A model generated the notes under the pieces. The model made no database searches and was not told where the DNA came from. It worked only from the letters and a program-made list of their open reading frames with translations. From assembly GCA_964016885.1 (NCBI GenBank), contig OZ024740.1:360654001-360718000 (forward strand): a DNA stretch of 64,000 nucleotides, written 5' to 3'. The translations under genes and the position numbers were made by a program. Source of the stretch: Eledone cirrhosa. Its lineage: Eukaryota. Shown here in pieces: positions 45,213 to 51,950 of this stretch (within the stretch, counting starts at the first letter, position 1; every line of letters begins with the position of its first letter).

Positions 45213-45601
45213 GGTCACTCTAATTGTGGAACCTGCGCTCACCTCATAGAAGGCAACACGTATACATTTCAATCAGGACAATTTTGCTGTAAAAAATCAC
45301 TTCACCTGCTCATCAAAAAATCTACTTTATGCTATTAAATGTAAAGGATGCAATGAAGATTATATAGGACAAACTAAACTCACACTCAGAAACAGAATGA
45401 CAATTCATCGCCAACAATTACGAGACCCTACCACAAGACAGATACCACTCAGTGTACATCTAGACATATGTGCAAGTAATAAGACACCCAAATTCCAAGT
45501 CTTCCCATTTTATCTTTGCGCTGACAATACAACAACAAATACGAATAAATAAGGAAAATATGTTTATTCAAAAATATAGACCAGCATTAAATATAGTTTA
45601 A
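45213..45601 (+). mobile_element. Penelope-like element GIY-YIG endonuclease remnant (two frameshifts); putative 3' region extends to ~46631
   Basis: NCGTCAHL...FTCSSKNLLYAIKCKGCNEDYIGQTKLTLRNRMTIHRQQ...HLDIC...KENMFIQKYRPALN*; GIY-YIG with CxxC as in PLEs; bounded by (TA)n. Confidence 0.88.
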
Positions 45602-46629
45602 TATACATTATGTCAACACCATAACATGCTAACCATCCAAACAGACATACATACAAATACACATAACACCTTTTTTCGAAAATAAAAACCAGAGCTAAAT
45701 AAACCTTAACATATGTTAATACTCTAACACCTTAACATGCTAACCCCCCCCCTCCACACACACATATAACTCTCTCCCCCATTTCTACTAATAGAATCAT
45801 CTTTCTACACACACACACACACACACCAGCACACAAATAAGCATACATATCTCTACTTTCTTTATTTCAATAGAAAGTCTAAATTTTGACACCCCAGCAC
45901 ACCAGCCATATTCACTGAACCAGAACAATTCTCCCCATCCCATTTTTCTTGACCATTATCTTTTGTTTGGCACAACATTCTCTAAAAGGCTACAAAAGAG
46001 GTGCAAAATGTAATGTACTTGTTCATGTGACAGTCATAATTTCATTTATAACCAATCAAATTACATTTCAGCACATCAGTCATACTCAGAACAACTCTCT
46101 CCATCCCTTTTTCTTGACCATTATCTTTTGTTTGGCACAAAATTCTCTAAATGGCTACAAAAAAATTACAAAATACAGGTGCAAAATTTAATGTACTTGT
46201 TCACGTGACAGTCATAATTTCATTTATAGTCAATCAAATTACATTTATAAAAAAAGCCTTCGTGAGCCACTTTTTTTTAAAGTAAAAAGAAATTCAAACA
46301 CAAACTGGCACGAAAGCTCATGTGCTTATTCATGTGACTGCATCAACCAACCAAACTTCACTCATGTATGAAATAACAATCTGAGTCCCCCTTTTTTTGA
46401 AGGCAAATATAATAAGAACTTTGTAACGCGAACTGGCACAAAATTTATTATACTTATTCACATGACAGTTATCAACCAACCAAATTATTTCTCTAAAAAC
46501 CTAGCATTTCAAGCCATTTTTTTCCATAAAACAGAAGTAACATTCAAACACCAACCAGATGTGAGAAAAACCACAAACCCTCCATCTCAATTCTACTTTT
46601 GAAAAGCACAAGAACTGCTATTAATTCCA

Positions 46630-46706
<77 letters not shown>

Positions 46707-46711
<5 letters not shown>

Positions 46712-47421
46712 TACTTTAAATTGAATCTGGCAAACCATATTGCTATAGTTAGTATTTTTTTCACCCTAGTGAACTTGGTCCCTTACAATTCGAACACATG
46801 CATGTTTATATTTGTGTTTATCTCTCTTGTATATACAATTATATTACACGGCTCAGAAAAACTTCTTTCTTTGAGCTATTTAAATGTAAGAGACTATTTT
46901 GAGTTTCTAACTCAACATCTGATATTGTCGGCCCCTTCTTGTCGAGCTAATTTAAATGTTTTGTGAACCCGGCTGCTATTTTTAGCAGCGTATGTTTACG
47001 AGGCACGCTAGGTTCTGATGCCATGTGCGTTATTTCCTATTTGCACACTATTCAGTCTACTGATATACTTAGAAGTGAAGGGATTACTAATTTTTACACC
47101 CAATGAAGAGCAGAAAATTGATAATTTCCTTCACTAAATAAATTGCGAAACAGCTAAGCTGTCTGGGTGTTTCAGCCCAATATAGGTTTGTTCTTATTTT
47201 TCTTGATTTATTACTTTAAATTGAGTCTGGCAAGCCATATTGTTATAGTTAGTATTTTTTTCACCCTAGTGAACTTGGTCCCTTACAATTCGAATACGTG
47301 TGTTTATATTTGTGTTTATCTCTCTTTTATATTCAATTATATTACACGGCTCAGAAAAACTTCTTTCTTTGAGCTATTTAATTGTATGAGACTATTTTGA
47401 GTTCCTAACTCAATACCTGAT
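46707..47421 (+). repeat. Partial tandem repeat (~500-bp period; ~215-bp direct repeats at 46707-46923 and 47207-47421), pLTR/retrozyme-like
   Basis: Two similar copies of ATTTATTACTTTAAATTGA...CTAACTCAA.A.CTGAT flank a hammerhead motif. Confidence 0.85.
47096..47170 (+). ncRNA. Type I hammerhead ribozyme with a C3A core change
   Basis: ACACCCA-ATGAAGA-GCAG...TTGC-GAAAC AGC taa GCT GTC-TGGGTGT; 7-bp stem I, GUC site. Confidence 0.72.
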
Positions 47422-49346
47422 CATCATCATCATCATCACCGTTTTACGTCCGTTCTTCCACGCTAGCATGGGTTAGACGGGTTGTCCTGTTGTGGGCAGT
47501 GTCTGGTCAGCCGACCATGCCTTGCTCATACAGGAACTGATCTGGCTTGATTTCTACAGCTGGATGCCCTTCCTAACACCAACCTCATCTACAGTGAGTG
47601 CTGGTGCTTTTTCGTGGCGCCTACACGTCCACTTTACAGTGTGGGCTGGGTGCTTTTTTTGCCGTGGCACCTCCACGGCCACCTTGCGGTGGGGGGTGTG
47701 GGGGCATATTGTCTATATGCTTCAGCTTGTACCCATGGGAGGTCGGGTAGTCTGTATTACTGCGTGACGCCAGAAGTCACGGTCGTGTGTCATTGTCTTT
47801 GAGAGGTGTAATTGGGTAAGGTCGGCTTTTATCACCTCATCCCAGGTCATCTTGGGTCTCCCCACTCCGCGGTTTCCATCAACTTCTAGTGCTCTGCACC
47901 TTTTTATGCAGCTGTCATCCTTCATACGCATCACATATCCATACCAGCGCAACCGCCTCTCCTGCACACAGCATTTGATTCCTCTTATGCTCAGTCTCTC
48001 TCTCAATTCATTTATGCTTTGTCGTTCACGTATATTACTGTTACACATCCATCGGAGCATGCAGGCTTCGTTTCTCTCTAATCTACGTAAGTCTTCCACC
48101 TTCAGTGCCCAGGTCTCACTACCATGCAACATCGCTGTTCGGATACACGCATCATGCAGTCTGCCTTTCATTCTGAGGGAGAAGCCTTTTGCAGCTAGCA
48201 GTGGTAGTAGTTCCCTAAACTTCTTCCATCCCATTCTTACCCTAGTTATTGTACTTTCTGAACACCCACCTCCGTTGCTAATTCGGTCACCTAGGTAGCA
48301 GAAGCTGTCTACTGTTTCTACAGGGTCCTCCCAGAGATTGGTGGTACTTGTTTCCTGTGGCTGTTTGCTGCTTGCTGTCTCAGCACAGCTGCTGCATGTG
48401 AATCCTACATTCTTAATTAAGCTTCCTGAGATCCCGCTACATCTCTTGTGTACCCATTGTTTGCATTTGGGGCAGAGAATGGAGTTCCTACCTACACCTT
48501 TCCTACATACTGAGCAAGGCCATTTCCCTGAGGGGATCTGGGTTCTGTTTTCTCGTCTACTTACAAGGACCTTAGTCTTTGTCATGTTGACTTTGAGACC
48601 CTTTCTTTCTAGTCCCTGCTTCCAAATTTGGAATTTATTCTCTAGTTCTACCATAGATTCAGCTATGAGTGCGAGGTCATCAGCATACAGGAGTTCCCAT
48701 GGGCATCCGGTCTTAAACTCTTCCGTTATTGCCTGCAGGACTATGATGAACAGGAGAGGGCTAAGAACAGCCCTGGTGGACCCCAACCTGTACGCTAAAT
48801 TCCTCGCTATACTCATTGCTAATCCTAACTTTGCTGACTGCTCCCCTATACATGGCTTGTACCGCTTTCACAAGCCATTCATCTACTCCTAGTTTTCTAA
48901 GAGCCCACCAGATTACAGCACGTGGAACTCTGTCAAAGGCTTTCTCAAGGTCGACAAATGCCAAGTAGAGTGGCTTACTTTTAGCTAGGTACTTTTCCTG
49001 TAATTGCCTCACAAGGAAGAGGGCATCGGTGGTGCCTCTTGCTGGTACAAACCCAAATTGCATCTCGTCTATTTTCACCCGGTCCCTAATCAGCTGTGCT
49101 ATAACTCTTTCTGTTACTTTCATGACCTGGTCCATCAACTTTATACCTCTATAGTTTCCTCTATCTAGTGCATCGCCTTTACCTTTGTAGCAGTTGACAA
49201 TGATGCTACTGCACCAATCTTTTGGTATGGCACCTTCTAGTATTACCTGGTTAACGATACGTGTGGTTATAGTGTGACCTACAGACCCAGATGCCTTCAG
49301 CATCTCGGCAGCAATACCCGATGGACCGGTTGCCTTCCCCATCTTC
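47422..49346 (-). mobile_element. 5'-truncated RTE LINE (family B) with 9-bp TSD
   Basis: TSD ATACCTGAT at 47413-47421 and 49347-49355; RT ORFs 48761-49348 and 47722-48816 separated by one frameshift near GVHQG; PHD insert; (GAT)n tail. Confidence 0.95.
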
Positions 49347-49372
49347 ATACCTGATATATATATATATATATA

Positions 49373-49700: not shown

Positions 49701-49857
49701 CTATATATATATATACATATACATATGTGTGTGTGCTTATACATATATATATATAAGTATTGAAATTTCCGTTGAAAACAGAAAAGGTCATAGAAGTGAA
49801 GAGTGCTCTATGTAAGTACCAGAGCAAAATTTAATGTATAAAAATCAATACAATATA

Positions 49858-49935
49858 ATTAACTCATTACCAGAGGTTTCCCGAATGAGGCGAATACGAA
49901 AGAAACGTCTTCATTCGTTCGTCAGACGAGGCAAT
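49858..49935 (-). ncRNA. Type I hammerhead ribozyme (minus-strand copy)
   Basis: Mirror copy of 50313-50390 with one extra stem I mismatch. Confidence 0.75.
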
Positions 49936-50312
49936 ATAAAAAACATGGGTAAATACTTGGAAAGTCTCATCAAGAAAAGCAAAAAAAATATTGACAAAGG
50001 AATTAGAATATGAAATATATAAAAATCTTTCAAGAAATATAGTTAGGTGTGTGTATATGTATGTATATACGCTCACAGATGTGCATATATGTATATGCAC
50101 AAATGTATACGTATAGTGAAAAAGTGTGCGTAAATATATAATTTAGGGCAAATGTATCTGTGTATCTGTAAACTACAGACAGAATAGATACATCATAAGA
50201 ATATGAAGGCGCGCGCATAAACACACCTACACACACGTATTCTAATTCATTTGTCAATATTTTTTTTGCTTTTCTTGATGAGACTTTCCAAGTATTTACC
50301 CATGTTTTTTAT

Positions 50313-50390
50313 ATTGCCTCGTCTGACGAACGAATGAAGACGTTTCTTTCGTATTCGCCTCATTCGGGAAACCTCTGGTAATGAGGTAAT
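50313..50390 (+). ncRNA. Type I hammerhead ribozyme with intact core
   Basis: ATTGCCTCGT-CTGACGA-aCGAATGA...TCATTCGg-GAAACC tct GGTA-ATGAGGTAAT; 10-bp stem I (2 GU pairs), 7-bp stem II with an A.G first pair, short stem III; predicted cleavage after A50380. Confidence 0.78.
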
Positions 50391-50496
50391 TATATTGTAT
50401 TGATTTTTATACATTATATATATATATATATATATTAGCCGCAGCCTAAAGCTTCGTTAATGTTGTACTAAAATTTGTATATATATATATATAAAA

Positions 50497-50607
50497 GAAC
50501 GAGTAGGACCCCGACGGCTGAGCTCAAGCCGTTTTGACGGCTAAGTCTGGAGTCCAGAATTAGCCGTTGAAACGGCTTAAGCTCAGCCATCGGGGTCCTA
50601 CTCGTTC
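50497..50607. repeat. 111-bp palindrome (55-bp arms, 1-nt centre, 5 mismatches)
   Basis: GAACGAGTAGGACCCCG...TCTGGA-G-TCCAGA...CGGGGTCCTACTCGTTC. Confidence 0.93.
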
Positions 50608-51643: not shown

Positions 51644-51849
51644 TCAAATCTCAGTTTTTATGTCGGCATCAGCTGTTAATTCCATGTCTTGTAGTGCCAG
51701 CCTTTGTTTTTCTTTCTCCGGGCTGTTAAATTTCATCACCTTGCTTATTAATAGGAATACAAAGAAGGCTGCTACCATTAAAATACAAAGTAAGAAGAAG
51801 AGATACTCTAGATGGCCCTGATTAATGTCTTTATCATTTAACCAAGGAT
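51644..51849 (-). CDS. SLC15A4: SLC15A4-like peptide/histidine transporter, last coding exon
   Basis: cag|(D)PWLNDKDINQGHLEYLFFLLCILM...DADIKTEI*; typical POT-family INxGHLxYxFFLL. Exact paralogue uncertain. Confidence 0.88.
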
Positions 51850-51950
51850 CTGTGGAAATGAAAAAACAAAAAGATTAAGAAATGGTCAGAACATTAATTT
51901 ATGTATATCCTAGATTGAAGGCATATATGTAGAACCAGCACTATCATTAA

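Follow-up and report, generated by a model that had tools for sequence, protein, structure and literature searches.

Opposed hammerhead motifs in Eledone cirrhosa very probably mark one Penelope-like element insertion with two head-to-head 3' ends

Our analysis of a 64,000-nucleotide stretch of Eledone cirrhosa DNA (hereafter, the window) indicated that an inverted repeat carrying two opposed hammerhead motifs is, very probably, a single insertion of a Hydra-clade Penelope-like retrotransposon (PLE) in (TA)n, in which two 5'-truncated 3' ends of the element, each with a hammerhead motif, are joined head-to-head. The locus as such is ordinary, one among dozens of such pairs in the genome, and the arrangement is not a host device.

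The arms of the inverted repeat lie at 49829-50010 and 50238-50419; they are 182 nt long, 98% complementary and 227 nt apart. The near-perfect 179-bp repeat with 2 mismatches, reported in a preliminary description made from the letters of the window, is real and extends to 182 nt: the mismatches of the 179-nt core are at 50249/49999 and 50386/49862, and a third, at 50417/49831, marks the edge where the arms diverge. In the alignment to other copies of the element, a minus-strand half (49755-50239, about 485 nt) reaches 50239 and a plus-strand half (50238-50416, about 179 nt) begins at 50238, and the two nucleotides TA at 50238-50239, which fit both halves, form the head-to-head junction. The left half is a 5'-truncated copy with the long (tailed) 3' end, consisting of the spacer, the arm and the tail. 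The 227-nt spacer (50011-50237, minus strand) is 3' UTR of the element and belongs to the left half only, and the tail of about 75 nt occupies 49755-49831 on the same strand; the continuation of this half to about 49755 and its inclusion of the entire spacer were absent from the preliminary description. Since this half merges into (TA)n, its outer end at 49755 can be placed only to within a few bases. The right half, likewise a 5'-truncated copy, has the short 3' end, and (TA)n comes after it. The target is seen as a TA-rich microsatellite on the left (49702-49754) and as (TA)n on the right (50417-50435), with no discernible target-site duplication. With 2 differences in 179 nt between its arms, the insertion is young.

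Other repeats were observed around the insertion. Directly to its left is a fragment of a non-LTR retrotransposon (47722-49372, minus strand) in two frames, matched by RVT_1 and by a PHD finger; at 46680-47421 and 46000-46472 there are direct repeats, whose periods are about 500 nt and 129-178 nt, and a GIY-YIG fragment at 45250-45552 on the plus strand (PF01541, E 4e-5), with two Cys between the motifs, appears from its sequence to be a remnant of another PLE clade. The segment 50497-50690 is a second, very abundant repeat with a hairpin of 55-nt arms (50497-50607) inside its own (TA)n tract. It adjoins copies of the PLE also at loci L002, L008, L010, L025, L110 and L112, probably through a common TA target. 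Fragments of ORFs from another PLE-like family were seen near these insertions at L036 (202-1164) and L037 (9367-9900).

Two complete type I hammerhead motifs are present in the arms, on opposite strands and at the positions previously claimed, and both have the core CUGANGA / GAAA / NUH with three stems. The plus-strand motif (50313-50390), which has the family-typical sequence, shows CUGACGA at 50323-50329, GAAAC from 50368 and GUA at 50378-50380, with a predicted cut after 50380. Its stem I is of 10 bp (50313-50322 with 50381-50390), its stem II is of 7 bp beneath an A50330.G50367 pair, and its stem III is of 3 bp with a 3-nt loop. In the mirror motif on the minus strand (49858-49935), CUGACGA begins at 49925 and the cut is predicted after 49868; a private change at 49862, found in 1 of 116 copies, breaks one pair of stem I. 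When the 64 kb window was scanned with a type I descriptor, exactly these two sites were recognized, whereas 60 Markov controls gave 0.03 on average. The Rfam hammerhead models, which had been proposed as a check, gave no match over the window (E<=1) or in 50280-50420 (E<=10), and the Rfam miRNA matches in the window were TA/CA repeats.

The A.G pair at the base of stem II had been regarded as a defect of the window copy that may impair catalysis. The family contradicts this, since the A is found in 116 of 116 copies and the G in 114 of 116 (a set partly selected on the ribozyme region), and the copies not chosen by the ribozyme 22-mer gave 61/61 and 60/61. In place of an R10.1-Y11.1 closing pair of stem II, the family as a whole has A.G, which is its normal state and not decay. 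Substitutions defining subfamilies fell on 0 of the 50 positions of the core and stems and on 14 of 115 positions elsewhere (p=0.006; 61 copies from few lineages, with sites that are not independent), suggesting that the ribozyme likely matters to the element and is selected for it. No compensatory stem changes were found among the 116 ribozyme copies of this young family. Our literature search found no publication on hammerhead variants with a 10.1/11.1 mismatch. Hammerheads without helix II are described in PMC544870 as slower, yet not always inactive, and many of the Hydra-clade motifs in the supplement of PMC8557442 can, on our reading, also be taken to have a non-pairing U.U or additional bases at 10.1/11.1.

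In the folding predictions, the active fold lay above the ensemble by 3.4 kcal/mol for the plus motif and 5.7 kcal/mol for the minus motif, because the 3' side of stem II can alternatively pair with the 3' strand of stem I. In a transcript across both arms, the arm hairpin (about -355 kcal/mol) was predicted to outcompete the ribozyme fold by about 120 kcal/mol, in agreement with the earlier proposal that a long dsRNA hairpin would compete with self-cleavage. On these models, the predicted ribozyme probably cleaves weakly alone and may need the help of a protein or a dimer; weak, assisted cleavage of this kind would match, by analogy, the low activity and the dimers reported for PLE hammerheads in PMC4209133 and the protein-dependent cleavage of a PLE ribozyme in PMC11167929. 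The ribozyme would probably serve the element in the processing of tandem transcripts, and in the dead, promoter-poor fragment of the window it is probably a passenger.

The arm represents the 3' end (pLTR) of a PLE that is young and present in many copies. A search with the arm gave 1451 candidates, the best 40 of which were at 95-100% identity, and a ribozyme 22-mer had at least 633 exact copies, against 0 for its reversed control. At 30 loci, homology ended abruptly 3' of the arm and tapered in the 5' direction, like that of a 5'-truncated retroelement, and longer copies led upstream of the arm into an ORF. Among 20 loci around the ORF matches, which were chosen for long open frames, six had an unbroken frame of 719 codons (712 aa from the first Met) and three had frames of 712-716 codons. 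At L065, L067, L074 and L077 we found pLTR-ORF-pLTR units in tandem, which measure about 3.6 kb and have a single RT/GIY-YIG ORF; in tandem copies the tail is continuous with the following unit, first with its 5' UTR and then with its ORF, and the ribozyme lies about 240 nt upstream of the next ATG. Partial tandems (pLTR), inverted 5'-truncated copies, a tail at one end and a hammerhead motif in the pLTR are characteristic of EN+ PLEs. The preliminary description was right to suggest a PLE pLTR, possibly inverted, as the ORF of the element, the motifs in its alignment and the inverted copies show.

The 712-aa ORF contains YRDD and xVY...YxG/R/E/N motifs conserved over 13 aligned relatives, and its neighbours in the ESM Atlas carry the GIY-YIG, RVT_1 and HTH_animal families; on both grounds it is a single ORF with RT and GIY-YIG endonuclease (EN). 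Of 8000 candidates scored against the protein, 1196 were relatives, with a best identity of 59%. A Pfam search of the ORF gave no RT or GIY-YIG match, and a PDB sequence search gave no match. The marks by which section 11 of PMC8557442 (Craig et al. 2021) defines the Hydra clade were used for the assignment. RWK and the change of DKG to DKT appear in the alignment as RMRWK and SDKT, and the CxCX5C linker as CSCRIKSEC; the EN is C-terminal, without CCHH and without Cys between its two motifs, and CxxC and CxH stand around E and N (CTLC..E; N..CPH). The single ORF, the type I hammerhead at the 3' end and the (TA)n target are likewise common to the clade and this element, 106 of 109 non-internal ends being short or long and then followed by TA repeats. 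The unit differs in its length of about 3.6 kb (L065), owing to a 3' UTR of over 1 kb, from the 'generally <3 kb' of the clade, which the paper states as a tendency and not as a definition. Naiad and Chlamys were rejected, since the EN is C-terminal here and a hammerhead is present, in contrast to their N-terminal EN and lack of a canonical hammerhead.

By eye, the nearest named member is Hydra-1_Obim (PMC8557442), whose conserved protein blocks match and whose protein is of 709 aa. The ribozyme sequence of the window family is different and its pLTRs are clear, whereas the listing of Hydra-1_Obim has 'no pLTR'. The tail of about 75 nt also exceeds the 30-40 nt described for PLEs. On its sequence, compared by eye with the published Hydra sequences, the element belongs to a new family within an already known clade. 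A hammerhead on both strands, as in the window pair, is found in Penelope-13_HM, a Repbase Hydra-clade family in the supplement of PMC8557442, but there a long body follows, while both halves in the window (about 485 and 179 nt) are short. The min-HHRs of PLEs (Cervera and de la Pena 2014, PMC4209133) are, likewise, of type I, located in pLTRs and provided with a long stem II and a weak stem III, and 'dual min-HHRs ... 100-700 bp but in opposite strands' were reported among them; they have a conserved G10.1-C11.1 pair where the window family has A.G, and differ from our motif, with its long stem I of 10 bp and a stem III able to form 3 bp by itself. PAc, a Poseidon element of Anolis (Frangieh et al. 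2024, PMC11167929), shares AT-rich targets and two fixed 3' ends that lie just past the ribozyme and bound a tail, but belongs to another clade, and its ribozyme overlaps the start of the ORF instead of lying upstream of it. The head-to-head arrangement, opposed hammerheads included, is thus already published for PLEs, and PMC3846280 and PMC8557442 (Fig. 2 legend) describe inverted pLTRs of which one has a tail. In the literature we searched, which left most subscription papers outside, the one-tail arrangement is stated qualitatively and a counted rule for the pairing of the ends was not found; the rule described below goes beyond the literature found.

The two halves in the window end at two fixed sites of the family, namely a short end 36 nt past the predicted cut and a long (tailed) end about 75 nt further. 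Among 127 distinct copies of the ribozyme region, 54 had the short end, 52 were tailed in (TA)n, 18 were internal and three were other; exact ends numbered 441 short and 349 long genome-wide. The short end at L075 is not followed by (TA)n. That a pair has one end of each kind was first noted on 13 pairs and tested afterwards. The first 100 ribozyme matches contained 12 pairs within 10 kb, against 0.26 expected by chance, and all were divergent; 10 combined a short and a long end, and the others were L115, where a long end is paired with one that stops 22 nt before the short site, and L114, with two short ends and a fragment of another Hydra-like family in between. We then scanned 190 listed ends covering C1 and C2 up to 301 Mb, with the 10 long ends beyond this point excluded. 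All 19 divergent pairs within 10 kb were short plus long (p=1.8e-6), no convergent and two tandem pairs were seen, and the 14 pairs that were new were all confirmed in sequence. In total, 35 of the 37 inspected pairs fit the rule, L114 and L115 being the exceptions. No tail-to-tail ribozyme pairs were found at the single narrow spacing searched (200-230 nt apart).

The arms of 22 pairs differed by 1.3% within a pair and by 4.3% from pair to pair (0 of 20000 permutations), and the halves of one pair share the subfamily and even private variants; note that shared variants within pairs could also stem from gene conversion between the arms. Among 35 pairs, the short-ended half exceeds its partner in length in 19, and the tailed half does so in 16. 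The two halves of a pair were thus shown to come from one common source and to be truncated independently. The junctions carry either overlaps a few bases long or insertions repeated locally, features that resemble the scars of polymerase-theta end-joining. In six of the 14 new pairs, a truncation falls within one ribozyme, indicating that the presence of two intact ribozymes is incidental. Since such pairs recur genome-wide, are often cut in a ribozyme and have been published, a reading of the ambisense pair as a special or regulatory unit is not supported.

Some individual loci deserve description. An independent pair on another contig (L023, 1097-1751) has both truncation points within about 7 nt of those in the window, and L129 shares one of these points, so that a truncation hot spot is possible. 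At L036 (2379-6426), three copies lie in a row, a long one and then a short/long head-to-head pair, which suggests repeated insertion in the same TA tract. The junctions at L110 (4373-4390) and L111 (1672-1711) carry short repeated templated insertions. At L114 (4560-7232, minus strand), a second Hydra-like family is fused head-to-head to a copy of the window family; it has a 503-codon frame, with its first residues from the reverse of the window element, a CNCX5C linker and a candidate hammerhead core near 4820-4780, and the fusion may be a mixed-family event or a nested insertion.

Two fixed ends, one of each per pair, a common source and independent truncation fit paired priming at two RNA start sites, and paired target-primed reverse transcription is, in our judgement, the probable origin of the pair. 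L1 twin priming, in which two primings at one target produce an inversion joined by microhomology, yields two non-overlapping segments, unlike the present pairs, in which both halves contain the same 3' end. In the proposed series of events, the RT/GIY-YIG protein, probably as a dimer, would nick the symmetric (TA)n target on each of its strands. Of these nicks, one would prime where the short end lies on the element RNA, and the other where the tail ends, about 75 nt further 3'. The two cDNAs would terminate early, and host end-joining would fuse their 5'-truncated ends. The strict combination of one short and one tailed end could tentatively be ascribed to a single RT-endonuclease dimer priming both strands from adjacent start sites of one RNA, a possible form of the mechanism for which we claim less; here the RNA might be circular or a tandem transcript, and the trailing enzyme would displace the leading cDNA. 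PAc is described in PMC11167929 as nicking and extending both strands from two adjacent RT start sites, with a predicted dimer and a protein-assisted ribozyme. In the in vitro results of that paper, start sites showed no strand or order bias and no difference between the strands, so our account of the pairing rule is inferential.

A different route from the same element to the inverted half, self-priming or fold-back of the first cDNA (or an antisense template) with endonuclease trimming of one end, seems to us unlikely. It would account for the near identity of the halves and for the junction at L123, where the two half starts lie 11 nt apart inside stem II; fold-back was proposed in PMC3846280 from palindromic junctions, and Craig et al. 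attribute the tail to endonuclease resolution (PMC8557442). However, a fold-back copy must nest in the first strand, and in the 19 of 35 pairs with a longer short-ended half, that half could not have templated the tail of the other, unless the tail was trimmed after the fold-back. Moreover, the junctions are mostly non-palindromic, with two start points that are usually far apart. That the inversion is an assembly or chimeric-read artefact of the fold-back type is far less probable still. PLE inversions do trouble assemblers (PMC8557442), and the contigs and reads matched were variants of the family and related repeats in other organisms, with no listed record spanning the junction with 31 letters on both sides or showing an empty site; but the arms differ at two internal sites, each stops at one of the two natural ends of the family with a different flank, the junction joins non-adjacent positions of the element, so that a simple fold-back does not produce it, and 36 other loci have the same plan with other junctions.

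Co-option by the host, in which an extended SLC15 3' UTR would carry the long dsRNA hairpin as an ADAR/Dicer substrate in competition with self-cleavage, is highly improbable, only marginally less so than an artefact. The neighbour on the minus strand is indeed of SLC15/POT type: five of the six exons tested match PF00854, four of them above the curated cut-off, and the last coding exon (51644-51874), which has no Pfam match itself, is assigned through the upstream exons. As the preliminary description stated, the minus ribozyme is sense to this gene and downstream of its stop, the coding sequence ending at 51644, 1.78 kb from the minus cut site, and the predicted stability of the hairpin would silence the ribozyme fold. 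Nevertheless, two AATAAA signals (51255 and 51007), which follow the stop by 0.4 and 0.6 kb, come before the element and leave the proposed link to SLC15 unsupported; the ribozyme on the sense strand is the one with the private break in stem I, the insertion is young, and the same architecture is found at dozens of loci, often cut through a ribozyme. The sequencing runs listed included none from RNA, an outcome that is not evidence about expression. A non-LTR retrozyme, defined in 10.64898/2026.07.22.740005 by tandem arrays of short non-coding monomers that all carry a hammerhead, or a MITE bounded by terminal inverted repeats, is the least probable reading of all. The type I hammerhead with a short stem III and the shortness of an element flanked by inverted repeats and TA recall them, but the first 100 matches included no same-strand pairs within 10 kb and therefore no short tandem monomers, and both are ruled out, as long as no identical copies of the composite occur elsewhere, by the finding that the arm forms the 3' end of a unit with an ORF and that the inner ends differ between loci.

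Each insertion of this kind would be a potential source of long dsRNA if read through. The fixed A.G at the base of stem II, together with a core that does not vary, makes the ribozyme a natural hammerhead variant of interest for cleavage. How PLEs make inverted pLTRs and tails is stated to be an open question in PMC8557442, and this young family gives countable constraints on the answer, namely that the two ends of a pair are of different types, that its halves have one source and independent truncations, and that its junctions resemble repair. If true, priming by a single dimer on one RNA would account for tail, inverted pLTR and opposed hammerheads by a single event, and since intact ORFs exist, the family is suited to reconstitution and offers a ready system for testing this form of paired priming.
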